From assembly GCA_021776775.1 (NCBI GenBank), contig JAJFFE010000175.1, forward strand, positions 12,562 through 76,561: 64,000 nucleotides of DNA, given 5' to 3'. The notes below the pieces were generated by a model that worked only from the letters and a program-made list of their open reading frames with translations, did not search any database and was not told the DNA's origin. Every line of letters begins with the position of its first letter. Within the stretch, counting starts at the first letter, position 1. A program made the position numbers and the translations under genes. Shown one piece after another: positions 31,592 through 46,911 of the stretch. The DNA comes from Planctomycetota bacterium (lineage in GTDB: Bacteria > Planctomycetota > UBA8108 > UBA1146 > JAJFFE01).

Positions 31592-33088
31592 TTGGACCCA
31601 ATTCGATGGCGAGAAATCGAGCGCAACCTCAAAGAAGTCCTGAGGACGCCCGAACCGCAACGCGAGAGTACACTCCAAAGGCTCTACGCCCAGGACGCCG
31701 AGCTCGCGCGCGAGGTGGAATCGCTGATCGCTTGTGAGCACTCGTACGATTGGGAAGATCCCGCGCCAGCAATACTCGAGCACGAACTTCCGACGAGTGT
31801 CGAAATCGGGGACCAGGTCGGCAAGTACACAATCGTCGAAGTCCTCGGCCGGGGAGGCATGGGCGTCGTCTACCTCGCCAACCAGTCTCAGCCCCAACGC
31901 CTCATCGCCCTCAAAGTGATCGCGACGGAACTTGCGGGAGAGGAGTCGTTTCGTCGCTTCAAGTCAGAAGTGGACATCTTGGCGCGTTTGAGCCACCCCG
32001 GAATCGCGCAGATCTTCGACGCCGGCGAGCTAGAGGGAGAAACGTTCAGGCCCTACTTTGCGATGGAGTACGTCGCTGGCGAAACACTCGGCGACTACAA
32101 CTCGAGTCACTCCCCCTCGATCAAGGCGCGGGTCGAACTCCTCATCAAGATTTGCCACGCGGTTCAGCACGCTCACATGCGCGGCGTCCTCCACCGAGAC
32201 CTGAAACCGAGCAACATCGTCGTCGACGCTAGCGGCGAGCCAAAGTTGCTCGACTTCGGGGTTGCCAAGACGATCGCAGGGGCAGACTCGTCGGCCGAGC
32301 GAACCCAGGCCGGACACCTCATCGGAACCCTGAACTACATGAGTCCAGAACAAGCCGCGGCCGACCCCGCCGCACTGGACGTTCGAACGGACCTTTACGC
32401 GTTGGGAGTCATCGCATACGAGTTACTCTCCGGTCGCCTGCCGTTCGACTTCCAAGGCGTTCCGTTGCACAAAGCGATAGAGACCATCGTAAATGTCGAT
32501 CCCGAGCCTCTCGACTGCACGAACCGTGAGTTGCGCGGCGATCTCAGCGTCGTCATACAGAAAGCGGTCTCACGGGACATCGAGCAGCGTTATCAATCGG
32601 CCCAGGAGCTAGCAGACGATCTCGGCCGTGTTTTGTCGGGAGAGCCGGTCGCCGCTCGCCGCGCTACGACGGTCTACCAGCTCCGCAAACTGGCTTGGCA
32701 CTATCGCGGCGCACTCGCGCTGTTGCTCGTGGCGGCGGTCGGTGGAGTCGCGGCGACCGTCGGATTCGTACTGCGCTCGATGGAAGTCAGCCGCAAGAAC
32801 GAGTTGATTGAGTTCTTCTTGTTCGACAGGCAACCCGGGCTCCGCGAACGGATGCTTCTCGAGGAAGGAATGTTCGATGACGTCATTGCAGACATCGATC
32901 GCTTGTTGCCAGATCAGCCGGCGATCAGAATCAAGCAGTACGAACGATTTGCACGTGTTTGCTTGGATCGATCTCAGTTTACTCGAGCCCTGGATCTGAT
33001 AGGTCGAGCTCAGCGGCTGAGTAGCTCTACTCTCGGAGGCTCGCGGGTCCGACCCTGTTCCTCGTCCGGTTTCGGAGCGACGTCATGA
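31592..33088 (+). CDS. Ser/Thr protein kinase (Hanks type) with C-terminal TM and linker
   Basis: Gly loop LGRGGMGVVYLA. VAIK-like LIALKV. Catalytic loop HRDLKPSNIVVD. DFGVAK. APE-like SPEQA. TM ALALLLVAAVGGVAATVGFVL. Confidence 0.85.
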   Translation: MDPIRWREIERNLKEVLRTPEPQRESTLQRLYAQDAELAREVESLIACEHSYDWEDPAPAILEHELPTSVEIGDQVGKYTIVEVLGRGGMGVVYLANQSQPQRLIALKVIATELAGEESFRRFKSEVDILARLSHPGIAQIFDAGELEGETFRPYFAMEYVAGETLGDYNSSHSPSIKARVELLIKICHAVQHAHMRGVLHRDLKPSNIVVDASGEPKLLDFGVAKTIAGADSSAERTQAGHLIGTLNYMSPEQAAADPAALDVRTDLYALGVIAYELLSGRLPFDFQGVPLHKAIETIVNVDPEPLDCTNRELRGDLSVVIQKAVSRDIEQRYQSAQELADDLGRVLSGEPVAARRATTVYQLRKLAWHYRGALALLLVAAVGGVAATVGFVLRSMEVSRKNELIEFFLFDRQPGLRERMLLEEGMFDDVIADIDRLLPDQPAIRIKQYERFARVCLDRSQFTRALDLIGRAQRLSSSTLGGSRVRPCSSSGFGATS

Positions 33089-34560: not shown

Positions 34561-35376
34561 CTAAGGACAAGCGGACGATTCACACCCGAACTCTATGTCG
34601 TCGGGCGCGGGTCCGCAGTTCGGGAATGGCGCTTGGGGCTCGTCTCCAGACAAGAACAGGTAACTCAACAAAAAGATGAGGTCTGCGATGTCCAGTTGAT
34701 CGTCATTGTTGGAATCGAGCGCGGCGACGCATTGGGGCTCTTCCCCACCCAGAAACAAGTAGTCTTCGGCGGTGAAGACATCCGCGATGTCGACGACGCC
34801 GTCGGTATTCATGTCGCCCCGGACATACGGAGAGGGGCCGAACGTGATAAGTCCGTCAACTAGGTTCGGGTCCGGGCCAATGATTGCGAGTTGGACGGAA
34901 TTTGAGACCGCTGGGATGCCAAGAGTATCGGTCCATGTGAGATCGGTCGACTGTCCTACGAACGGCGCGATGGCCGTGAATGTCACGTCGATTGCTGGCT
35001 CGGCGATGGGGAACGGAACCGACCATGAGCCGGTGTGGGAGTAGGCGACGCCGGCGGTCCAGCCGCCATCGAACACCGCTGTGGCGAAGAAATCGGGCTG
35101 GCCCCACGGGTCAACGAAAATTGCGGATCCGTAGGTGATCTCTTCGACGTCCAGGACATCGGAGTCATGCGCGCACCCCATCGCGAACCCTAGGGTTTGG
35201 ACGAGTGGTCCCGATGTCTGGTGAATATCGAAACTGATCGTGAACTCGAAGTCGGTTTCGCCGGGTGTGAACGCAATGTATTGGGTCGGAGCGATGAAGT
35301 CGAATTCGACTTGAGCGCTCGCGGCGTTCGGAGCGAGTAGCAAGGCGGTTGTCAGAACGAGGAGCGTACGGATCAT
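34561..35376 (-). CDS. Small secreted protein with C-terminal dockerin-like module
   Basis: Signal peptide MIRTLLVLTTALLLAPNAASAQ (ATG 35376). C-terminal RGDMNTDGVVDIADVFTAEDYLFLGG...DSNNDDQLDIADLIFLLSYLF...CGPAPDDIEFGCESSACP. Confidence 0.75.
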   Translation of the reverse strand: MIRTLLVLTTALLLAPNAASAQVEFDFIAPTQYIAFTPGETDFEFTISFDIHQTSGPLVQTLGFAMGCAHDSDVLDVEEITYGSAIFVDPWGQPDFFATAVFDGGWTAGVAYSHTGSWSVPFPIAEPAIDVTFTAIAPFVGQSTDLTWTDTLGIPAVSNSVQLAIIGPDPNLVDGLITFGPSPYVRGDMNTDGVVDIADVFTAEDYLFLGGEEPQCVAALDSNNDDQLDIADLIFLLSYLFLSGDEPQAPFPNCGPAPDDIEFGCESSACP

Positions 35377-36119
35377 GGGCGCATTCTTTTTTCTGCGTGG
35401 AGTGGCTAAGCCAAAATCGGATGCAAGCGGGTCGAAGCGATGAAATCGAACGTCGTCTACGCGTGCGCCGCTGGGGTGACAACACAAAACAGCGCCAGAA
35501 CTAGAGCCGATCGGATCATGGGAGTCCCTTCTCCGTGAGTGATTGAGATCACATTCGCCGAGGTACGCGTCTCAGAGCGAGGATGGGGCCGCGCCTTACA
35601 CCCATTTAAAATGGAACTTTGTTCGTGCACGGCGGGCTAGATCAGGATCGATCCGGCTTGCCCACCGCGCATAGACCATTCTGACGAGTCATCGCCTGTT
35701 CAATAACGCTGGGCGTGAACTCCAACGAACGCCCAGCGGCGTCCTTTCTGTTTCCCACGCAACCTCCTGCCGTGGATCGAGCGCAAACGGATAGTGACTG
35801 CGAATCAGGATAGTGGATCGAGCGTCTATCACAGCGTTCCGCGAACAAGTTGCCGTATGGGGAGCCAATGCCTCTCCTGGATCCAAGACTAACTGCCTAC
35901 GCGTGTGCGACCGACATGGCAAACCGAGTGGTTCGTGTTATCCGTCGGCAGCGCGGCTAGGATGACGGTCGGCCGCGGGAGGCAAGTCATGCTCTAGCCG
36001 CTCACTCTTCGTCCTTTTCGGACCCGGCTTGGCTAGGGGGGCAAGCAGGATGGGGAACTACCATCTTACTTTTCCCTCGTGACTCCACGGCCGTTCTGCC
36101 ACCCCTTCTGGAGGAAGTC

Positions 36120-36623
36120 ATGAGAGACTCTCGCGCACGCATAGTGCTCACTGCATGTTCCGTCATCGCGGTCACCGGTCTCATCGCGCTCGGTGTCCAG
36201 GTTGCGCTCGCATCGACGGGCGACCCGAAGTGGTCTGTTCACCAGAAGGCCGTCGCGAGCGTCATCGAGAAGTGCTACTTCAACGGCGCGTTCAACGCGC
36301 TCGACGCTGACGCCATGGGGCGAGGCTTCCACGAGACCTTCGCTATCTTCTCGGCCAAGGGAGACGAGCTTTCGAGGTACGAAATCGCCGACTGGATGGC
36401 GGGCGTCCGAAAGAGAAAGGCGAAACCCGACTTCGATCCCAAGTCAGCGGCGATGGAGTGTCGCATCGTTTCGATCGACGTGACGGCAGGCGCCGCGGCA
36501 GCCAAGGTCGAAATGCGACGGGACGGCCGACTGATCTATACGGACTACTTGTCCCTACTGAAGTTCAAGAGCGGGTGGAAAATCTCGGCCAAGATCTATC
36601 ACCGGCATCCGGACTCGAAGTAG
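36120..36623 (+). CDS. NTF2/SnoaL-like fold protein (putative lumazine-binding / DUF4440-like), secreted
   Basis: N-terminal signal/TM, then an NTF2-like pattern: DRFHETFAIFSAKGDEL, RIVSIDVTAGAAAAKVEM, YTDYLSLLKFKSGWKI. Confidence 0.6.
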   Translation: MRDSRARIVLTACSVIAVTGLIALGVQVALASTGDPKWSVHQKAVASVIEKCYFNGAFNALDADAMGRGFHETFAIFSAKGDELSRYEIADWMAGVRKRKAKPDFDPKSAAMECRIVSIDVTAGAAAAKVEMRRDGRLIYTDYLSLLKFKSGWKISAKIYHRHPDSK

Positions 36624-37018: not shown

Positions 37019-37227
37019 CCGAATAGTCCTAGCAGCCTCTTCATCGCGGCCTCGCCCTGTCGCCGGAGGTTTTCGTGGAATCTGTCGTTGGTTGAGCCCG
37101 AGTTTGCCGGGCTGGTTCGACGGCTCGCGTGGCTGGACCTTGGTTCACTTCGGAGTATCCGCGTTGATTCTGTCACCTCAGCGCACTTATACTGCTTCGT
37201 TCTCGAACCTTAGGAAGAGCGGTAGTC

Positions 37228-37968
37228 ATGATTCTCGGCAAGATATGGGCATCCATCCGCGCCCAGTTCAACAAGCTCGCGAACTTCTTTTGGGAAGCCG
37301 ACCCGATCGCCCAAATGCAGTATGAGTACGACATGGCGGTGGAGCAGCTCAAAGATGGGCGCAAAGGGCTAGAGATCTACCGCGGACTCGTCGAGCGCGT
37401 TCTGCGCCAAGTCGAGTCCGGTAAGAGTAAGGTCGCCAAGCTCCAAGCCAGCACCAAGGCGTATCTCAAGGCTGGGGACCGAGAGAGCGCGGCGCGCTTC
37501 GCCCTTGATCTTCAGCGGGCCAAAACGGAGCTCGCCGATAACCAGGGGCAGCTCGAGATGCACGAGACCGCCTACGAGAACAACCTCAAGAAGATCAAAC
37601 ACGCGAACAAGAAGCTCGGTGAGGTCCGCGAGAAGATCACCCGGTACGACGCGGAGCTGAAAATGAGCGAAGCGGAGGCGGAGGTCGCGAAACTCGCCGA
37701 GAGCTTCGAGATGAACGTGACCACCGATTTCGGCCAGATCGAACAGGCCATCCAAGGTCGCATCGACGAGAACCGCGGTCGCGCGCGAGTGGCGGCGGAT
37801 ATGTCGGAAAAGGGCATCGACGAGATCAAAGCGGAAGAGCGCATGGAGGCGACGCTCGCCGACGATGCGTTGCGCGACTTCGAGGTGGAGCTCGGGCTGG
37901 TCTCTCCGGAGACGAGTCCCATGGTCGAGACCCCCAAGCATCTCGGACCCGCGACTGAGAACGAGTAG
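37228..37968 (+). CDS. pspA: PspA/IM30/Vipp1 family protein (bacterial ESCRT-III superfamily)
   Basis: N-terminal amphipathic helix MILGKIWASIRAQFNKL. Conserved EADPIAQMQYEYDMAVEQL (PspA DPxxM motif). About 220 aa of coiled coil with PspA-like heptad pattern. Confidence 0.85.
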   Translation: MILGKIWASIRAQFNKLANFFWEADPIAQMQYEYDMAVEQLKDGRKGLEIYRGLVERVLRQVESGKSKVAKLQASTKAYLKAGDRESAARFALDLQRAKTELADNQGQLEMHETAYENNLKKIKHANKKLGEVREKITRYDAELKMSEAEAEVAKLAESFEMNVTTDFGQIEQAIQGRIDENRGRARVAADMSEKGIDEIKAEERMEATLADDALRDFEVELGLVSPETSPMVETPKHLGPATENE

Positions 37969-38067
37969 TCTTTCGGTGACCGTTCGTTCGTCAGTTCGCC
38001 AGGCCATTCGAATTCAATACGGTTTTCTTCAGCGCCAAGAGAGTAACGTCCCTCAGAGAGCAGAGTC

Positions 38068-39795
38068 ATGAGCAACAAACCCAAAGCCGGCTTCTACATC
38101 GTTGCGTTCCTGGTGGTCGCGACGCTGGTCTCCTACGCGGTCTACCGCTTCACTTCCGGCGACGGCGGTGGCGCTGAACCGGGTGGCAAAGGAACCTTCA
38201 GCGCCGACGAGATGAAACAACTGAAAACGCCGGCCGAAGACGCGGCCGGCACCGGTATCACCACCGTCAAGGAATACAACTGGGTCGCCTCGGCGCGTCT
38301 GCCGGAGGTCAAGGGTGTCTCCGGCTACAAGGCGATGACCGACCGTACCGTCAGGTTCGCCATCAACGTGTGGGCAGGATGGGGACCGATCATTCATGCC
38401 AACCAAGGGTTCGCGCCCGGGAAGATCTGGACGACGCCCGGCGGTGAGCCGTTCAAGGTGGAGCTGGTCCTGATCGACGATCCAATCGCGATGCGCGACG
38501 CCTACGCGGCGGGCGCGGTTCACGTGGGATGGGCGACGCTCGACATGGTGCCGCTCTTCCTGGAATCGTTGGGCGCCGACTCCCGCGTGCAGCCTCGCAT
38601 TTACCAACAGGTCGATTGGTCCAACGGCGGCGACGGCATCGTGGTGCGCGAGTCCATCCGTTCAGTGGGAGATTTGCGCGGCAAGACGGTCGTGCTGGCT
38701 CAGAACTCGCCCTCGCACTTCTTCCTGCTGAACGCGCTGGTGAACGCTGGCGTCCAGCCGGCCGAGGTGAACATGAAATTCACCCAGGACGCATTCCAAG
38801 CCGCAGCGGCGTTCAACGCCGACAAGTCGCTCGCCGGCTGCGTGAGTTGGGCTCCGGACATCTACAACCTGTCGGAGGTTCGTGGCAATCGGATGCTGGT
38901 CACCTCGGCCACCGCCAACCGGCTGATCGCAGATGTGTGGTTCGCTCGCGCCGACTTCGCCAAGGACCACGGCGACGTCGCCGAGGGGCTAGTCCGCGGG
39001 ATTTTCGATGCGATGATCGATCTCAAAGAGGAGTCCGCGCGGCAAGCGCTCGCGAAGCTCATGTCCGACGGCTACTCGATCCCGCCCGACGAGTGTCTCG
39101 GCATGCTCGGTGACGCGCACTCCACGAACTACGCCGAGAACCGCGAGTTCTTTCTGAACCAGAACAACCCGACCAACTTCGAGCGCACCTGGGATTCAGC
39201 GTACTTCCTGTACAAGCGGATCGGCGCGGTCTCCAAGAAGATCAAGTTCGACAAGGTGATGGACTTCTCGATCATCAAGAAACTCGCAGGGGAGCCCAAG
39301 TACGCCGATCAGAAAAACGAGTACGAGTTCCAGTTCGCTCCGACGTCGGCCAGCGCGTTCGACGTCGAAGACCCCATCCTCACCAAGACAGTGGTGATCC
39401 ACTTCTTCCCCAACAGCTGGGACCTCGGCAAGAAGATCACCAAGAAGGTCGGCGGTAAGGACCGCGAGGAACTCTACGATCCCAACGCTGGCTTTGTCAT
39501 CGAGGAAGTCGGAAAGCTTGCCGGCCAGTACGGTGCGGCGCGCATCGTGATCGAAGGGCATACCGATGCGTCCATGAGAGGACGGACCTCTCCGGGGCTT
39601 CTCAAGGAGCTCTCCATGAATCGCGCCAACTCGGTCAAGCAAGAGATCGTGCGCCAGTTCTCGAGCCTACAGCCGAATCAGTTCTCGACCTCCGGCGTCG
39701 GTTGGGATCGGCCCGCCGACCAGAGTGATCCGAACAACCACGCCAAGAACCGCCGCGTCGAGATCAAGGTCTACCCGGCGGAGGCGCCCAAGTAA
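38068..39795 (+). CDS. NMT1/SsuA-like ABC substrate-binding protein with N-terminal TM anchor, fused to a C-terminal OmpA-like peptidoglycan-binding domain
   Basis: TM FYIVAFLVVATLVSYAVY. SBP body (taurine/sulfonate/nitrate family). C-terminal OmpA_C signature IEGHTDASMRG...NRANSVKQEIV...NRRVEIKV. Confidence 0.8.
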   Translation: MSNKPKAGFYIVAFLVVATLVSYAVYRFTSGDGGGAEPGGKGTFSADEMKQLKTPAEDAAGTGITTVKEYNWVASARLPEVKGVSGYKAMTDRTVRFAINVWAGWGPIIHANQGFAPGKIWTTPGGEPFKVELVLIDDPIAMRDAYAAGAVHVGWATLDMVPLFLESLGADSRVQPRIYQQVDWSNGGDGIVVRESIRSVGDLRGKTVVLAQNSPSHFFLLNALVNAGVQPAEVNMKFTQDAFQAAAAFNADKSLAGCVSWAPDIYNLSEVRGNRMLVTSATANRLIADVWFARADFAKDHGDVAEGLVRGIFDAMIDLKEESARQALAKLMSDGYSIPPDECLGMLGDAHSTNYAENREFFLNQNNPTNFERTWDSAYFLYKRIGAVSKKIKFDKVMDFSIIKKLAGEPKYADQKNEYEFQFAPTSASAFDVEDPILTKTVVIHFFPNSWDLGKKITKKVGGKDREELYDPNAGFVIEEVGKLAGQYGAARIVIEGHTDASMRGRTSPGLLKELSMNRANSVKQEIVRQFSSLQPNQFSTSGVGWDRPADQSDPNNHAKNRRVEIKVYPAEAPK

Positions 39796-39797
39796 TC

Positions 39798-40616
39798 ATG
39801 AGTTCCCTTTCCGACTTCTTCCAGCTTCGGGTGCAGCCCCCGCGAATGACGCGGTGGGCTCTCGGTCTGAGCGCGGTGCTGGCGGTCCTCGCAATATGGT
39901 GGTTCGTGACCTCCGGCGAAGAGCTGGAGTATCGAATCGTTCCGCAGGGCAGCCTTCCGAGCCCGGGCGAAGTGCTCGACAGCGCCGGCGCGCTCTTCGG
40001 CGACCGACCGTTCTTCAAGAGCGTTCAGGCAACGTTGGAGCGCGTCTTCATGGGTTTCGCACTGGCGATCTTGGTCGGCGTTCCGCTCGGAGTGCTCGCC
40101 GCGTCTTGGCGCGGGATCGAAGCGTTCCTCGCGCCGATCAGCCTGTTCGGGCGGAACATCCCCATCGCCGCTTTGATCCCGTTGAGTTTGTTCTGGTTCG
40201 GTACCGGCGAGTTCCAGAAGGCGATGTTCATTTTCGTCGCATGCGTGCCGTTCGTCTTCGGCAATACCGTGCAGGCCGTGCTCGCCGTCGAAGATCGTTA
40301 CGTCGAGACGGCGCTCACACTCGGCGCCACACGGTGGCAGATCGTGCGCAAGGTGCTCTTGCCACTCGCTCTTCCGCAAATCTATGACGGCCTGCGCATC
40401 CTGTTCGGATTGGCGTTCGGCTACCTCATGTTGACCGAAGCGATCGACACGCCGTTCGGGTTGGGGAAACTCATCGACGGAAGCCGGCGCGTTGGACCTA
40501 AGGAACACGTTTACCTGATCCTCTTCGCGATCCTCCTGATCGCCTATCCGATCGATCGGCTCCTCTGGTTCTTGCACCGCGGGCTCTTTCCGCACACCGT
40601 GAAGGAGCAGGAGTGA
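39798..40616 (+). CDS. ABC transporter permease (SsuC/TauC/NrtB family)
   Basis: EAA-loop-containing binding-protein-dependent permease with 6 TM helices. Translationally coupled to the flanking genes. Confidence 0.85.
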   Translation: MSSLSDFFQLRVQPPRMTRWALGLSAVLAVLAIWWFVTSGEELEYRIVPQGSLPSPGEVLDSAGALFGDRPFFKSVQATLERVFMGFALAILVGVPLGVLAASWRGIEAFLAPISLFGRNIPIAALIPLSLFWFGTGEFQKAMFIFVACVPFVFGNTVQAVLAVEDRYVETALTLGATRWQIVRKVLLPLALPQIYDGLRILFGLAFGYLMLTEAIDTPFGLGKLIDGSRRVGPKEHVYLILFAILLIAYPIDRLLWFLHRGLFPHTVKEQE

Positions 40617-41455
40617 CGGTCTACGAATCCGGCACGCCCGATCCGACTTCGCCGCATCGGCCCCCGATCGTACAGTTCGAGAGCGTGACCAAGACGTACG
40701 CGGCGGGCACTGATCGAGCGTTCACCGCCGTCGAGAACGTGAACTTCACCGTCGAGGACCAGATCGACCATGGCGAACTGATCGCGGTCCTCGGTCCGAG
40801 CGGTTGCGGCAAGTCGACGATTCTGCGACTGATCGCTGGCCTACGCCCCCAGTTCCCCGCCACCGAAGGCGAGGTGCGGGTGGCCGGCAGTCCGGTCGCC
40901 GGACCCGGGGCCGACCGCGGTATGGTTTTTCAGGGGTACACCTCGTTCGACAACCGGAGCGTGTTGCGAAACGTTGCATTCGGGCTGGAGTGCCGCGGGA
41001 TGCCACGCGAGGAACGTGAAGAGCGTGCGCGCGAGTGGATCGGCAAGGTCGGTCTCGACGTCGACCAAGACTCGAGCAAGTACCCGTTCCAGCTCTCGGG
41101 CGGAATGCGGCAGCGGGTCGCAATTGCTCGGAGCCTGGTACTGTCACCCCGCATCATGTTGATGGACGAGCCGTTCGGCGCCCTCGATCCCACGACCCGC
41201 TTTCGCATGCAAGATCTTCTCGTCGACTTGTGGAGGGAGCAGGAGGCGACGGTGTTCTTCGTCACTCACTCGATCGAGGAGGCGGTCTACCTCGGACAAC
41301 GCATCCTGATCTTGTCGAGCTCGCCGGGTACTGTCGTTCGAGATATCGAGGTTCCGCACCCGGATCGTCCCGCGCGGGAGATGCAACGTGAACCGACCTT
41401 CGTGGAAACGGTGTTCGAGATTCGAGAGACCATCGAACAGTTGGAAGCAGACTGA
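40613..41455 (+). CDS. ABC transporter ATP-binding protein (SsuB/NrtD-like)
   Basis: Walker A GPSGCGKST. Signature LSGGMRQRVAIARSL. Walker B LLMDEPFGALD. H-loop VTHS. Confidence 0.9.
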   Translation: MTVYESGTPDPTSPHRPPIVQFESVTKTYAAGTDRAFTAVENVNFTVEDQIDHGELIAVLGPSGCGKSTILRLIAGLRPQFPATEGEVRVAGSPVAGPGADRGMVFQGYTSFDNRSVLRNVAFGLECRGMPREEREERAREWIGKVGLDVDQDSSKYPFQLSGGMRQRVAIARSLVLSPRIMLMDEPFGALDPTTRFRMQDLLVDLWREQEATVFFVTHSIEEAVYLGQRILILSSSPGTVVRDIEVPHPDRPAREMQREPTFVETVFEIRETIEQLEAD

Positions 41456-41463
41456 TCGAGCCT

Positions 41464-42366
41464 ATGGCGAAAACGAGACGCGGTGGCGCAGGAGTTTGGG
41501 AGTATCTAAAGGGGGCGTTCCTTTTTCGTTGGAACCTGCTCTTCGGGGCCGGTGCAGTGATCCTGGCCGCCCTGAGCCCGGCCCCGGAAGTCCTGTTGCC
41601 GCTGGTCGCGGCCGCCGAAGCGACTTATCTCATGGGGATGGTCGCGTCGCCTCGATTCCGCACCGCGATCGACGCACGTGAACACGCATCGCGTCGCAAG
41701 ACCCCCGAGGCCGGGCCTAGTTCGACCGCAACGCCGTCGCTCGACACTCTGGTGGCGGGGATGTCGCCATCGGGTCGTCGCCGCTTCGAAGAGCTGCGAG
41801 CGCGTTGCCTCGAGATGCGATCGATCGCCGCGGGCGTCGGAGGCCGGACCGGCTCCGGGCGGCGCTCCGCGAGCGAGGTCTCGAGCCCCGGTCTCGACAA
41901 GCTTCTCTGGATGTTCCTCCGCCTCATGATTTCGCAGTCGTCGCTCGAGAACTTCCTCGCGTCCACCGATGAGTCGCAGATCCGGAAGCAGCTCGGTCAG
42001 ACGAAAGAGAAACTCGCCAAGGCCGAAGAGGACAGCGACGAGCGGCTGATCCGATCGCTTCGCGACAGTCTCGCCACCGGCGAGCTACGCCTCGACAACT
42101 ACGCGAAAGCGGAAGCCAACGCGGAGTTCGTGGCGGTCGAACTCGATAGACTCGAGGGCAAGATTCAAACGTTGAGCGAAATGGCGATCAATCGTCAAGA
42201 TCCGGACTTTCTCAGCCGCGAGGTCGACTCGGTGGCGGCCAGCATGCAAGCAACCGAAGTAGCGATGGAAGAGTTGGCCCTCGTCGACGGACTGATCGAT
42301 GGGCTCACCGATCAACCGTCCATCTTGGAGGCGGACCTGAGAGGAGTGTTGGGCAATGAAGCCTGA
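41464..42366 (+). CDS. Membrane protein with two N-terminal TM helices and a ~170-aa C-terminal coiled-coil domain
   Basis: TMs LLFGAGAVILAALSPAPEVLLPLVAAAEATYLMGMV. Long heptad-repeat C-terminus (QLGQTKEKLAKAEEDSDERLIRSLRDSL...). Its stop overlaps the downstream AAA+ ATPase start by 11 nt. Confidence 0.6.
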   Translation: MAKTRRGGAGVWEYLKGAFLFRWNLLFGAGAVILAALSPAPEVLLPLVAAAEATYLMGMVASPRFRTAIDAREHASRRKTPEAGPSSTATPSLDTLVAGMSPSGRRRFEELRARCLEMRSIAAGVGGRTGSGRRSASEVSSPGLDKLLWMFLRLMISQSSLENFLASTDESQIRKQLGQTKEKLAKAEEDSDERLIRSLRDSLATGELRLDNYAKAEANAEFVAVELDRLEGKIQTLSEMAINRQDPDFLSREVDSVAASMQATEVAMEELALVDGLIDGLTDQPSILEADLRGVLGNEA

Positions 42367-44173
42367 ACGCGATGACGAGGCCGATCTGTCAGCTGCCCCA
42401 CGTCCCGGATTGCAGGGTCTCGGATTACAGGATCTCGGACTGCCCGAGGGTTATCCCGAGTGGGCCGCGCGATTGGCCGAGCTCTACTTCTCGGGAACCA
42501 CCTCGACGTTCGTGCTGCATGGCAACGTCTTCGATCACATTCCGATGGGATCCGGGAAGAAGTCGCGGTTCACCCACTTGTCCGGCGTCTTGGCCGACGA
42601 TCTCTTCGGCAGCTGGGATCTCGTGTTTAGCTACGACCTAGCGACCGGGCTACGCGCCCTCGCCGGCCGCGGCAAGGATCGGCTGCGCGAAATGGTCGCA
42701 CTGGCCAATCGGAAGTTCGGAGACTTCCAGGAGATCCCTCGCGACCCGACTCACACCCTCGCCTACCTCGACCGAGTCGTGCGTCGCAACCTGCTAGCCG
42801 ACGAGGAAGACCGCCTCAGCATCGCCATCGTGATCGATCACGCCTCGTACGTGGTTCCGCGAGGCCAGCCCGGGCAGCTCAACCTTTCCGCGTCGACCAA
42901 CCTCGTCACGATCCTCAACTGGGCGACCAGCCCGTACCTCAAGCGACTCAATATGGCGGTGATGTTGGTCGATCCGAGACTCGCCACGCTGAGCGAACGA
43001 CTCACCGGAAACTCGCACGTGGCGACCCTCGAGGTCAAGCTCCCGACCGAGTCGGAGCGGCGCCGGTTCATCGAGTTCACGGCCGAGAGCGTCGAGTTCG
43101 AGAAGTTCTCGGACTTCTCCGTCGAAGAGCTCGCCAATCTGACGGCGGGGATTTCACTCTCGGACCTCGACACCATGGTGCGATCCGCGCAGAAAGCAGG
43201 ACGACGACTCGACTCGGGTCTGTTTCGCCGCCTCAAGAAGCGCCTCCTCGAACGGCAGTGCGAAGGCCTCCTCGAGTTCATCGAACCGAAGTGGAGCCTC
43301 GACATGGTGGTCGGGCACAAAGCGGCGAAGGCGAGACTCACCGGCGACGCGGAACTCCTCAAGCGTGGCCGACTGGGGAGCGTCCCGATGGGCTACCTCC
43401 TGTGTGGTCCCGTCGGAACCGGCAAGAGCTTCCTCGCCCAATGCGCGTCGGGTTCGCTGGGAGTGCCGTGTGTCATGCTCAAGAACTTCCGCTCGAAGTA
43501 CGTCGGCGAGACCGAAGGTAACCTCGAGAAGGTCCTCTCGGTGTTGCGTGCGATGGGGCCGGTGGTGGTGATCATCGATGAGGCCGACGCGATGCTCGGC
43601 AACCGAGGTTCGGACGGCGACTCCGGGACCTCGAGTCGCGTCTTCGCCATGATCGCGGCGCAAATGGGCAACACGCAGTACCGCGGAAAGATCCTCTGGA
43701 TGCTGCTGACGTGTCGCCCAGATCTCCTGCCCATCGACCTCAAGCGTCAGGGGCGCGCCGAAATCCACATCCCCATGTTCTACCCTTCCGAACAAGAGGA
43801 ACTCCGCGAGCTGTTCGAGGTGCTCGCCCGCAAACTCGGCGCAGACCTCGACCCCCAAGACATCCCACCCATCCCCCATCTCGGCGATCTTTCGGGGGCA
43901 GACATCGAGGGAATCGTCGGCCGCGCCCAGCGCGCGGCGCTCCTGGCGGGAGCGGAGAAAATCACGCGCGAGATCCTGGAGCAGGCGGTCGGCCAGTTCA
44001 TGCCGTCGACCCGCAGTCTCGAGCGCAAGCTGCAAGAAATCGCCGCGATCATCGAGTGCACCGATCGCGAGTTTCTCCCGTCGCACATCGCAAAAGATCT
44101 CGAGGCGTCCGGCGGTCGCGAAAAGCTGCAAGAAGAACTGACAACACTCAAGAGACTCGTCGAGAGTCTCTAA
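42356..44173 (+). CDS. AAA+ ATPase, classic-AAA clade, with a degenerate P-loop-like N-terminal domain and a canonical C-terminal AAA domain
   Basis: C-terminal domain has Walker A GPVGTGKSF, Walker B VVVIIDEADA and a second region of homology LTCRPDLLPIDLKRQGRAE. N-terminal half (FVLHGNVFD..IVIDHASYV) looks like an inactivated nucleotide-binding domain. Confidence 0.8.
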   Translation: MKPERDDEADLSAAPRPGLQGLGLQDLGLPEGYPEWAARLAELYFSGTTSTFVLHGNVFDHIPMGSGKKSRFTHLSGVLADDLFGSWDLVFSYDLATGLRALAGRGKDRLREMVALANRKFGDFQEIPRDPTHTLAYLDRVVRRNLLADEEDRLSIAIVIDHASYVVPRGQPGQLNLSASTNLVTILNWATSPYLKRLNMAVMLVDPRLATLSERLTGNSHVATLEVKLPTESERRRFIEFTAESVEFEKFSDFSVEELANLTAGISLSDLDTMVRSAQKAGRRLDSGLFRRLKKRLLERQCEGLLEFIEPKWSLDMVVGHKAAKARLTGDAELLKRGRLGSVPMGYLLCGPVGTGKSFLAQCASGSLGVPCVMLKNFRSKYVGETEGNLEKVLSVLRAMGPVVVIIDEADAMLGNRGSDGDSGTSSRVFAMIAAQMGNTQYRGKILWMLLTCRPDLLPIDLKRQGRAEIHIPMFYPSEQEELRELFEVLARKLGADLDPQDIPPIPHLGDLSGADIEGIVGRAQRAALLAGAEKITREILEQAVGQFMPSTRSLERKLQEIAAIIECTDREFLPSHIAKDLEASGGREKLQEELTTLKRLVESL

Positions 44174-44207
44174 GTCGACGCAACCCTAACGAAAAGTGAG
44201 AGTATCC

Positions 44208-44495
44208 ATGGCAAGGGCGAGCTGGTTCGACGATGCGACCGAGGTCCCGCACTTGGCGGAGAAAGTAAACGAGCTCGATGCATTCGCGAACGCGATGGCC
44301 GACGGCCGCGTCGACAAGAACGAACTGGAGGCGCAACAGGAGCGACTGATCGCGGCCATGAAGACGGTCGAGGCCGACCTCAGTGACGAACAGCACGCCA
44401 AGGTGACGGTACTCCTGGTCGAGCTGACGGCGTACGACATCATGCGCACGCTCCACGAACTCCAAGTCGAACGACTGCGCGGCAAGTTCAAGTAG
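44208..44495 (+). CDS. Small all-helical hypothetical protein (95 aa)
   Basis: ORF from the table (44196..44495). Start taken at MARASWFDD. Charged helical composition. Last gene of the co-directional pspA cluster. Confidence 0.45.
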   Translation: MARASWFDDATEVPHLAEKVNELDAFANAMADGRVDKNELEAQQERLIAAMKTVEADLSDEQHAKVTVLLVELTAYDIMRTLHELQVERLRGKFK

Positions 44496-44559: not shown

Positions 44560-46911
44560 GTGCTCACCCGCTATCCGGCCGCGCTACTTGCGGGCGTGAC
44601 TCGTCGACGCAAGAGACGACGCGAACATCGTGAGAGCGAAGACAACTCCCATGCCGACGACGGCGAGTACGGCGGGGAGACCTGTCGCGTCACTGTCACA
44701 GCTTCCCCAGCCTTCGACGCGAGTAGCTTGTCGAGGTTGCTCTCCTCCCTGGGCCTCGCGGCTGGAATCGGCATCGGGGCGGCTCTTCAGGGCGTCGCTG
44801 GTGCATGGCTGGTTCGGAAGTTCGTCGGCATTCCCACGCGGCTGATCGACTCGAGGCAGGTGTTTGGCTTCATGGCCGTCGGCGGCCTGGTCGGTTGTGT
44901 GGTTGCGCCGACCTGGGGTGTCTCTACCCTCGTCGTGTGGGGTCTTGTTCCCCATGACGACTTCACATTTCACTGGTTCACGTGGTGGGTGGGTGACGCG
45001 ATCGGCGTCTTGATCTTTGCGCCGCTTCTGGTGCTCTGGCTCGAGCCCAACAATCGAGTCGCTCGTGGCGCCCTGGCCTGGATCACGACCGCGTCGTGTC
45101 TGACTTGTGCGCTGGCGACGGTCCTCTACTTGATCGCAAGCAATGCCGAGCAGAATCGCCTGGAGCAAGACTTCCACCGCCGGGTCACTCCAGTTCATCA
45201 GCGGATCGCGAATCGCCTAGACTCCTACGCTGCGGCACTCGAGTCGATCGAGAGCCTCTTCTAAAGCTCAATGGAGGTTGATCGGGGCGAGTTTCGCAAG
45301 TTCACCACGAAACTTCTGAGTCGCTATCGCGGCCTGCAGGCCGTTTCGTGGAATCCGATCATCGAGGCGGGATATCGACTCGCCTATGAACAGGCCATGC
45401 GAGTCGAGGGGATCTCCGGATTTCAGATCAAGGAGCGTGACGAGAGTGGGCGCTTGGTGCGCGCTGGTTCTCGCCCCGAGTACGTGACGGTGCATTTCAT
45501 CGAGCCACTCGATCGCAACCAGGCGGCTCTGGGTTTCGACGTGGCTTCGGACTCGACGCGGCGAAGCGCGATCGAGCGCGCGTTCACGACGCGTCTCCCT
45601 GCCGCCACCGCCCGCATCACTCTCATACAGGATGACGAGAGTCAGTTCGGGGTCCTGATACTCGATCCACTGCTGGAGGTAGATCAGAACGGACACGAAG
45701 ATGTCCGGGGGTTCGTGGTGGGAGTGTTTCGCCTGGCGGACATGGTGCGGGAGTCGCTCGCGACCCATGATCTCGATGATCTCAGCTTGACCATGTCCGA
45801 TCTTTCGGCCGAGCCAGGGAGCCGGCTGCTGTTTGCGAGTTCGCCATCAGATCCGACCGCTTCTGCTGCTTCTGATCCTGGTGCGACACTTCTTCAACAG
45901 CGGACGGATGTTGAGTTCGCCGGCCGGAATTGGGAGCTCCATACTCTCGCGAAGCCGAGCTACCTGCGTTCGACACGGAGCCTCGACGCTTGGCTCATCC
46001 TCGTGGCCGGTTTGTTGTTTACGGGACTACTCGGCGCCTTCTTGCTGGTGCTCAACGGCAACGCTGTGGTCGAGGCCAGGCGATCGACCGAACTGGCCAC
46101 GACGAATGACGAGCTGACTCGTTCGGTCACGGCTCTCCGGGAGGCAGAGAACGCACTGCAGCTGTCGAACAAGGAGCTGACGCGGCACAACGACGAGATG
46201 GAACAGTTCATCTACACCGCCTCTCATGACTTGAAGACCCCCCTGGTGACGATCAACGGTTTCATGGCCGTTCTGAACGACGAGATTCAAGCGGGTGATC
46301 AAGACCAGATCGCGGATTCTATGAAGCGCATCAAATCGGCTGCGACGCGGATGGGGCAACTGATCGAGGATCTTCTGCAGATCAGCCGCATCGGTCGCAC
46401 CGAGGACGAGACGGAGATCGTCGATGTGGAATCTCTCGTCGCCGAGCTCGTCGATGAGCGCCGCCATCAGCTGAGTCAGCGTGACATCGCGTTCGAAGTT
46501 CAGCCGGGCCTGCCAGCCTCGATGGCCGATCGAACCCGACTCATGCAGGTCTTCGACAATCTGATCGGTAACGCTGTCAAGTACGGTTGTGCAGAAGGTC
46601 CGGGCAAAATCTCGATCGGCGGGACGGTCCGCGAAGGGCTTTCAGAGTACTTCGTACGGGATACCGGCCCCGGGATTCCGCCCGAGTTTCACGATAGGGT
46701 GTTCCGACTCTTTACTCGACTGAAGAGCGACAAGGATGGAACCGGAGTCGGCCTGGCGATTGTCAAGCGAGTCGTGGAGCACTACGGCGGCATGGTCTGG
46801 GTAGAGCGCGACCTTCCGGTGGGGGCAGGGTTTCGTTTCACCATTCCCCACGGCGCCGACGCGGAAGTGGACGACGCTGAAGCCAGCGACCGAGAAGTCT
46901 CGCTGGCGTAG
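44560..46911 (+). pseudogene. Sensor histidine kinase (MASE1-like membrane module, CHASE domain, TM, HisKA, HATPase_c). Interrupted by an in-frame TAA at 45262-45264 and 5'-truncated at the repeat C1 junction.
   Basis: 44560-45261 and 45271-46911 are in the same frame, separated by one stop. The upstream part has about 4 TM helices (partial MASE1) and its first ~40 codons are antisense to repeat C1. The downstream part has a CHASE pattern (YVTVHFIEPLDRNQAALGFDVASDSTRRSAIERA), a TM, H-box HDLKTPLVTINGF, and N/G boxes (GNAVKYG, DTGPGIP, GTGVGLAIV). Confidence 0.65.
44585..44682. repeat. Direct repeat C, copy 1: duplicate of the 3' end of the DUF368 gene at 56110-56205 (~85-90% identical, about 98 bp)
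   Basis: Minus-strand translation gives PAVLAVVGMGVVFALTMFASSLASTSHARK-stop. The authentic DUF368 C-terminus is PAVLAVVGVAAVFALTMFASSLASTSHARK-stop. Confidence 0.85.

Follow-up and report, generated by a model that had tools for sequence, protein, structure and literature searches.

A conserved operon joining a divergent PspA to a classic AAA ATPase in Planctomycetota: a candidate functional analogue of the ESCRT-III/Vps4 pair

Introduction

It is not settled how bacteria take apart their ESCRT-III-type polymers, PspA and Vipp1. Bacteria have no Vps4-like partner according to recent reviews (PMC7619361, PMC10936438), and the former, a 2025 review, describes a Vps4-like ATPase as seemingly missing from bacteria. 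Here we ask what can be said of a locus in a Planctomycetota bacterium at which a gene for PspA shares an operon with a gene for a classic AAA ATPase. The locus lies in a 64,000-nucleotide stretch of DNA (assembly GCA_021776775.1, contig JAJFFE010000175.1, positions 12,562 to 76,561 of the forward strand), hereafter called the window, and all coordinates of the locus are counted from its first letter. Seven co-directional open reading frames (ORFs), designated g1 to g7, occupy positions 37228-44495 on the + strand, on which all operon features described below also lie. They encode, in this order, a PspA/IM30-family protein of the ESCRT-III superfamily, a binding protein, a permease and an ATP-binding subunit of an ABC importer, a membrane-anchored helical protein, the AAA ATPase, and a small acidic protein.

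We lean slightly towards the view that g6 is an analogue of Vps4 in function and would act on an ESCRT-III-type polymer, and the same slight preference applies to the whole mechanism set out below. We favour it because the operon is tight and conserved, because PspA and the ATPase also occur together in minimal triads, and because g6 combines the full motif set of a threading motor with an apparently degenerate AAA module at its N-terminus. Further reasons are that the cytoplasmic domain of g5 forms a long, hairpin-shaped helical structure whose charge polarity resembles that of ESCRT-III, that a tail motif is nearly exclusive to g1 and g5, and that published comparative genomics (PMC11237479) independently came to the same view. 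We infer the remodelling function from gene context alone. The operon, which has relatives in a great many soil bacteria of several phyla, is a compact and testable candidate answer to the question of disassembly. If g6 does recycle PspA, the pairing of an ESCRT-III-type polymer with a classic AAA protein would have arisen convergently or else long predate archaeal ESCRT.

Both the architecture and the Vps4 analogy are already known in silico, and the window locus is a further example. Ravi et al. (mSystems 2024; PMC11237479) described an operon of PspA, PBPB+OmpA, permease, ABC-ATPase, TM+Snf7, and inactive-AAA+AAA genes and put forward the Vps4 analogy (section 18, Text S2.2). They likened ATP-dependent membrane remodelling to Snf7/Vps4, linked the transporter to solute transport and peptidoglycan, and listed in Table S3 an entry, OGG56892.1 (Ca. 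organism), that has the gene order of the window operon. The order and domains of g1-g6 are identical to those of this published type, the Snf7 label of gene 5 alone being unverified, and the functional inference is the same as ours. What we add are conservation counts, the g5/g6 overlap, g7, the minimal triad, a caution about the Snf7 label, a candidate tail motif, and the exclusion of a mobile-element or defence origin.

Organization and conservation of the operon

The junctions and ORF coordinates bear out the initial annotation, which had described seven co-directional genes with abutting or overlapping boundaries. The g5 stop overlaps the g6 start by 11 nt, as claimed; there is a 4-nt overlap between g3 and g4, and gaps of 2 and 8 nt separate g2 from g3 and g4 from g5, respectively. 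True spacers are limited to g1/g2 (99 nt) and g6/g7 (~34 nt). No terminator-like site was found in a scan of the g1-g7 region. The sole promoter-like site that is sensibly placed is a sigma-70-like candidate (TTGATT-18-TATACT) at 37164-37193, 35 nt 5' of g1, for which the consensus scan gives weak evidence, with 3 sites found in the region against 1.1 expected. The layout shows a tight operon, in which g1-g6, and g7 where present, would be co-transcribed with the TauABC/NitT-type importer genes among them. The domain calls made earlier for g1-g4 and g6 (PspA_IM30, SBP+OmpA, BPD_transp_1, ABC_tran, and PF00004) were reproduced, and no PspB, PspC or PspF-type gene was found inside the g1-g7 cluster, in agreement with the claim that the canonical pspBC/pspF partners are absent. 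An exact protein-sequence look-up retrieved no contig on record with an identical g6 protein.

To place the locus among relatives, one genome per GTDB species was scanned for g6 relatives, and the synteny of the best 80 loci, out of matches in at least 555 species, was examined by tblastn with the seven window proteins. An orthologue of the ATPase is encoded in at least 555 GTDB species, and the best 80 loci belong to Planctomycetota, Acidobacteriota (Vicinamibacterales, Solibacteraceae, and Bryobacteraceae), Myxococcota (Kofleriaceae, Nannocystaceae, Anaeromyxobacter, and Haliangium), and Gemmatimonadota; the lineage that carries the window locus has Planctomycetota metagenome-assembled genomes (MAGs) as its nearest relatives. 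Wherever the sequence extends more than 5.6 kb upstream of the ATPase, which is the case at 56 loci in at least four phyla, g1-g5 keep their order and strand (56 of 56). Identity to the window proteins across phyla is 59-79% for g1, 59-70% for g6, and 42-61% for g5. The g5/g6 overlap is itself conserved, measuring -11 nt in 31 of 75 loci and -4 nt in another 20 (51/75 combined).

This conservation bears directly on one rival explanation, namely that a transporter operon lies beside a stress gene by coincidence. All that speaks for it is the 99-nt spacer that separates g1 from g2; the invariant synteny amid variable flanks, and loci in which PspA abuts the ATPase, speak against it. The arrangement is far beyond chance, the linkage of PspA and the ATPase is not coincidental, and we regard the rival as effectively refuted. 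Conservation of the PspA-AAA adjacency in relatives had been set beforehand as a test able to refute the initial annotation, and the adjacency is conserved. The flanking genes vary from locus to locus and are not conserved with the operon, which indicates that the operon is a self-contained unit.

The identity of the operon proteins across phyla is unusually high, which may mean that they are very strongly constrained or that the whole operon has spread horizontally among soil lineages. One locus, L063 (2460-5755, in a Solibacteraceae MAG), has a broken g1-g2 junction, the sole case of this kind, with ~3.3 kb containing an opposite-strand BNR-repeat gene between the PspA and binding-protein genes.

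Minimal triads and the PspA-ATPase pair

Two loci, L065 (Kofleriaceae, 3203-6090) and L075 (~1755-4630), carry abutting genes for PspA, the AAA ATPase and g7, with neither the transporter nor g5. These triads indicate that the functional core is PspA plus the ATPase, not the transporter. The PspA of the triads is a divergent subtype (60-63% identity) with another N-terminal helix (NKLGNWLFNKDP) and a longer tail ending in ...ELEKLEKA, and the triads may represent a paralogous second system in Myxococcota.

A conserved pairing of PspA with an AAA protein can also be read in the opposite direction. PspA could regulate the ATPase, with g1 inhibiting g6 until membrane stress titrates PspA to the membrane, after which the freed g6 would act on another client, such as g5 or the transporter. 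The model for this is E. coli PspA, which binds the AAA+ domain of PspF and inhibits it. As an AAA+ 'adaptor' that inhibits PspF, PspA is well established (PMC7619361), the conserved adjacency is as compatible with regulation as with a substrate role, and the translational overlap of g5 and g6 suggests a stoichiometric g5-g6 pairing. The parallel with the E. coli pspF-pspABC system extends to the functional link between a PspA-family effector and an AAA+ protein. However, PspF belongs to another AAA+ clade, that of the sigma-54 enhancer-binding proteins, has a DNA-binding domain, and is inhibited by PspA, whereas g6 is an unfoldase type of the classic clade that lacks a DNA-binding domain and carries the classic threading pore loop; moreover, PspB and PspC are not in the cluster. 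In the triads L065 and L075, which lack g5 and the transporter, PspA or g7 are the sole encoded partners of the ATPase. We regard the regulatory reading as unlikely and retain PspA as the candidate substrate.

The third gene of the triads, g7 (44208-44495), encodes an acidic three-helix protein of 95 aa. The initial annotation of a small helical protein is correct as to its presence and its helices, but not as to its start: the annotated ORF spans 44196-44495 (99 aa), whereas an alignment with 30 homologues places the conserved start at an internal Met at 44208. g7 was found by a hidden Markov model (HMM) in 64 of the 80 loci and would be a frequent accessory of the ATPase. At one locus that lacks it, the next gene encodes an unrelated xanthine/uracil permease. 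Neither g7 nor g5 has a family in Pfam, NCBIfam or PADLOC.

The AAA ATPase

g6 (42356-44173, 605 aa) appears to consist of two AAA modules, of which the second has the features of an active motor. The C-terminal half (43286-44173) matches PF00004 AAA with 81.9 bits over residues 347-473, together with AAA_lid_3. It contains a Walker A motif (GPVGTGKS at 351), a pore loop (KYVG at 381), a Walker B motif (VVIIDE at 404), and the second region of homology, RPDLLPIDLKRQGRAE, at residues 454-469 with R464 and R467. Membership in the classic AAA clade, which the initial annotation had based on the last of these motifs, is borne out by the whole set. A motif scan found one Walker A/B set only, in the C-terminal half, and a Pfam search of g6 detected neither a protease nor an MIT domain, nor an effector domain of another kind, consistent with the earlier statement that the protein has no effector domain.

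The N-terminal half (42356-43285, residues 1-310) appears to be a degenerate, P-loop-less AAA module. The conserved sequence runs from approximately residue 30 directly into this module, where FVLHGNVFD occupies the place of Walker A; the P-loop and arginine fingers are missing and the lid subdomain is retained. A profile of the N-terminal half retrieved 66 chains from the PDB; every one belongs to a classic AAA protein and aligns in a single register (positions 197-277, best E 0.0022), and they include FtsH, p97, paraplegin, NSF, Yme1, Rix7, Vps4/CdvC, PAN, and katanin. The matched segment corresponds to beta5 plus the lid (IEVPLPDEEER...ELAKLTAGISLTDLNVLV). The same half gives a weak AAA_lid_3 match (E 0.013), and the D1 lid of a VCP-like protein aligns with residues 220-310. 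An hhalign comparison of the N-terminal and C-terminal halves was not significant (probability 0.8%), and the alpha/beta core of the N-terminal module is not detectable by sequence. The degenerate nucleotide-binding-like domain that had been proposed for this region is thus found in its beta5 and lid portions and not in its core. Of the two folds for which a check had been suggested, MIT-like and inactive AAA, the former was not found and the profile recovered classic AAA lids only. We conclude that a degenerate AAA module is supported for the lid.

Following the lid of the second module, residues 555-605 form a conserved extension of ~50 aa, in which E567-C568-T569-D570 and F573-L574 are invariant. 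A helix that lies C-terminal to the lid is important for the oligomerization of Vps4, katanin and spastin.

The family position of g6 was examined with NCBIfam models. Its scores are 74.8 bits for CDC48, 71.9 for PAN, 61.3 for FtsH, 56.3 for IteA, and 47.6 for CdvC, all far below the cutoffs (802 bits for CDC48, 510 for IteA, and 650 for CdvC). The best solved-structure matches of the full-length profile are VCP-like, Cdc48, AFG2, and NVL, with Yme1 as the best single-domain match, and no Vps4 chain was present among the best 60 PDB matches. The sub-cutoff scores together with the lack of Vps4 among these 60 matches set g6 apart as a family of its own in the classic clade; membership in another AAA family (FtsH-like, proteasomal or ClpX-type), which had been named in advance as a possible refutation, was not found. 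Judged by these profiles, g6 is not a Vps4 orthologue and not a member of the Vps4/CdvC family. The description of g6 as a bacterial Vps4-like ATPase fails in the family sense, given the lack of MIT, the two cassettes and the CdvC score, and holds as a functional analogy alone. Like Cdc48/p97/VAT, which provide its best sequence matches among solved structures, g6 is predicted to carry two AAA modules per chain. Unlike them, it lacks Walker A and the arginine fingers in the first module, has no double-psi-barrel N domain, and falls far short of the CDC48 cutoff.

The scores also raise the question of whether g6 belongs to an anti-phage defence system or mobile element built on an IetA-like AAA ATPase. 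The PADLOC IetA model matches g6 with 69.8 bits, NCBIfam IteA gives the score listed above, and ZorB (MotB/OmpA) weakly matches the OmpA domain of g2. The g6 matches are limited to the generic AAA cassette, and the IteA score is far below its cutoff of 510. There is no IetS or protease partner in the cluster, and no defence genes flank the operon. No orthologues were found in phage genomes or viral contigs, and the plasmid homologues are distant (25-29% identity, on five Bacillales megaplasmids). Invariant gene order with 59-79% identity across phyla is also unlike the patchy, fast-evolving islands of defence systems. Identification as an IetAS defence system was rejected on the grounds of the missing protease partner, the absence from phages and viral contigs, and the invariant synteny, and we consider a defence or mobile-element origin highly improbable. 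As proposed here, the operon would be a vertically stable envelope module.

The PspA protein and the importer

g1 (37228-37968, 246 aa) matches PF04012 PspA_IM30 with 35.8 bits against a gathering cutoff of 33.9, the alignment covering residues 1-207 of g1 and, of the 220 positions in the profile, 1-203. Despite this near-threshold score, the assignment is robust because 31 of 31 orthologues match the same family (best E 6.9e-15), and the PspA identity given in the initial annotation stands. Neither g1 nor the profile of its orthologues matched solved PspA/Vipp1 structures by sequence, so that the assignment rests on Pfam; by this measure g1 is a divergent PspA. Residues 2-22 (ILGKIWASIRAQFNKLANFFW) form a highly conserved amphipathic helix with a hydrophobic moment of 0.43 and a mean hydrophobicity of 0.27, and would correspond to the membrane-binding helix alpha0 of the family. 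The charge of the protein changes from +3.3 to -8.4 along the chain. The C-terminal half and tail are acidic, and the tail is conserved, with L215, E219, and G223 invariant in the 31 orthologues.

The three genes that follow encode an importer. g2 (38068-39795, 575 aa) is a substrate-binding protein (SBP) with a C-terminal OmpA-like domain. It matches OmpA, Phosphonate-bd, and NMT1 in Pfam and SBP and OmpA models in NCBIfam, and its closest solved structures are TauA (6ssy), SsuA (2x26), and Omp38 (3td3). It has a single hydrophobic segment, at the N-terminus (residues 6-29). From these features, g2 is a membrane-anchored binding protein of the TauA/SsuA/NrtA type with an OmpA-like domain predicted to bind peptidoglycan. 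g3 (39798-40616, 272 aa) is a TauC/SaoP-like importer permease (BPD_transp_1) according to Pfam and NCBIfam, and g4 (40613-41455, 280 aa) is a TauB-like ATP-binding subunit (ABC_tran, 98.5 bits) that reaches 225.7 bits with the TauB model, under the equivalog cutoff. As a set, g2-g4 have the features of a NitT/TauT-type ABC importer, i.e., a type I permease, a cognate ATPase and a binding protein of the SsuA/TauA/NrtA fold, and miss every equivalog cutoff.

The membrane-anchored helical protein and the shared tail motif

g5 (41464-42366, 300 aa), published as 'SIG+TM+Snf7', belongs to a family of 1,107 clusters at 50% identity. Its AlphaFold model (predicted local distance difference test score of 81.9) contains two short helices within a hydrophobic stretch of 44 residues (18-61). 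This stretch is flanked by positive charge on either side, which implies a hairpin in the inner membrane with both ends in the cytoplasm and a cytoplasmic location for the helical domain of the model. A basic juxtamembrane region follows, and then a long helical hairpin (136-190 / 193-244), a further helix (247-270), and an acidic, proline-containing tail that ends in a short helix. A Foldseek search with the model returned nothing significant; CdvB2 ranked 16th and CdvB 42nd, amid BAR and eisosome proteins. Across orthologues the charge changes from +4.9 to -9.5, a polarity that resembles that of PspA and is not diagnostic.

The C-terminal tail is the sole stretch that hhalign paired between g5 and PspA. 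In g1, the corresponding segment is ADDALRDFEVELGL (residues 211-224, 37858-37899), and in g5 it is TEVAMEELALVDGL (residues 264-277, 42253-42294); each is followed by a conserved proline a few residues downstream. Both segments fit the ungapped pattern [AST]E.[AS][LVMI]..[FLMI]....G[LIVM], which is present in 43 of 59 g1 orthologues; for g5, it is found in 60 of 76 orthologues and in 22 of the 84 diverse relatives. When six-frame ORFs from the loci (1.1 M residues) were scanned, 107 of the 109 matches fell within g1 or g5 genes. E265 and P285 of g5 are among the ~19 positions that are at least 90% conserved across the 84 diverse family representatives. The segment is a possible shared docking motif, and we treat it as a lead.

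The position of g5 permits another reading, in which the ATPase serves g5 or the importer, as an extractase or chaperone that ensures their assembly or quality, and PspA is a co-expressed, general protectant against membrane stress. The classic AAA proteins FtsH, Msp1, and Bcs1 act on membrane proteins. These precedents, and a g5 that is membrane-anchored and translationally coupled to g6, favour such a role, and a chaperone-like assembly function for PspA partners is also discussed by Ravi et al. (PMC11237479). In contrast, both g5 and the transporter, which would be the clients, are gone from the minimal triads, where PspA, the ATPase and g7 persist; a published Clostridium dyad consists of PspA and the ATPase only (PMC11237479); and g6 has no protease domain. 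An assembly factor therefore seems improbable to us, and we continue with the reading of g6 as an analogue of Vps4.

Proposed mechanism and comparison with ESCRT-III/Vps4

In the mechanism that we propose, PspA (g1) would bind the cytoplasmic face of the membrane by its amphipathic N-terminal helix and polymerize, and g5 would serve as a fixed membrane anchor or nucleation site for the polymer. Hexamers of g6 would recognize PspA and g5 by their acidic C-terminal tails, which have a short conserved motif in common. Because g6 has no MIT domain, this recognition is assigned to the inactive N-terminal module, to g7, or to both. The tails would then be threaded through the KYVG pore, and ATP hydrolysis in the second cassette would drive disassembly or turnover of the polymer. 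The importer, tethered to peptidoglycan, may link polymer turnover with a signal from the envelope or from a solute, possibly an osmotic one; this is the least supported step.

The likeness to archaeal and eukaryotic ESCRT-III with Vps4/CdvC lies in an ESCRT-III-superfamily gene that adjoins the gene of a classic AAA protein with a threading pore loop, and in presumed substrates with acidic C-terminal tails. Some archaeal ESCRT loci encode the ABC-type binding protein ProX (Makarova et al., PMC10936438), which parallels g2. The differences are considerable: g6 has two cassettes, the first of them apparently dead, no MIT domain, and model scores that place it outside the Vps4 family, whereas the polymer here is of the PspA type rather than the Snf7 type, ESCRT-II winged-helix partners are lacking, and a peptidoglycan-tethered importer is added. 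A more far-reaching version would see in the operon an independent or pre-archaeal bacterial ESCRT-like machine, in which PspA and g5 form a composite polymer, the tandem AAA protein disassembles it via the tail motif with g7 as an adaptor, and the machine performs ATP-dependent membrane scission or repair, positioned by the importer. This version is possible, though we hold it to be doubtful.

Several results weigh against g6 as an analogue of Vps4. The ATPase shows no specific relationship to Vps4/CdvC, the Cdc48, PAN, and FtsH models scoring higher, and lacks the MIT domain by Pfam. The initial annotation had suggested that g5 may be a second PspA-like or adaptor subunit, and Ravi et al. 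(PMC11237479) regarded the g5-type protein as a membrane-anchored divergent Snf7. In our hands, Snf7 and PspA_IM30 from Pfam (E ≤ 1) matched 0 of 38 close and 84 diverse g5 members, hhalign of g5 against the PspA orthologue profile gave probabilities of 0.05-0.2%, and a profile of the diverse g5 members found no ESCRT-III protein in the PDB. Matches to the g5 fold are equally good for BAR domains and designed bundles. The HMM tests for a PspA-like or Snf7 subunit were thus negative and the fold searches non-discriminating; g5 is compatible with ESCRT-III, and the published Snf7 label was not reproduced with standard tools. The hhalign pairing of the g1 and g5 tails is not significant, and the tail pattern was defined post hoc, after both tails had been viewed. 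The mechanism does not explain the role of the transporter, and g7 is missing from 14 loci with ample downstream sequence, including all six of Gemmatimonadota. We found no experimental study of a PspA-AAA-transporter module in the literature.

The megaplasmid homologues belong to the same side of the balance. The two inspected, L109 (Paenibacillus polymyxa SC2 pSC2, 5986-7608) and L110 (Aneurinibacillus plasmid, 5992-7569), are 25-27% identical over residues 35-580, and no PspA, g5, or g7 gene lies within 6 kb of the tandem AAA gene in either. Their surroundings contain small hypothetical genes, an SLT transglycosylase, and ArdA. These homologues without PspA indicate that the wider ATPase family is not restricted to PspA. 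The Bacillales megaplasmid homologues were also considered as cultured models and were set aside, being ~25% identical and unlinked to PspA. On the other side, the pairing of PspA with an inactive-AAA+AAA protein recurs as a dyad in Clostridium (PMC11237479).

Genomic surroundings of the window locus

No conserved flanking regulator was found in relatives; the MASE1/CHASE kinase, Ser/Thr kinase and lumazine-binding-like genes that surround the operon in the window do not accompany it elsewhere. Upstream lie genes for a Ser/Thr protein kinase (31592-33088, + strand), a secreted protein that contains a dockerin-like repeat (34561-35487, - strand), and a lumazine-binding-like protein (36120-36623, + strand), none conserved with the operon. 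The GC content drops from ~0.64 to 0.58-0.61 over 26-38 kb of the window.

Downstream of g7, a MASE1 ORF (44560-45264) and an ORF with CHASE, HisKA, and HATPase_c domains (45271-46911) are in the same frame and are separated by a single TAA (45262-45264), the junction reading ...ALESIESLF*SSMEVDRGEFRKF.... The CHASE domain, if separated from the upstream part, would have no N-terminal membrane segment. The region 44560-46911 looks like one sensor-kinase gene with an in-frame stop, which may reflect a pseudogene, a sequencing error, or read-through.

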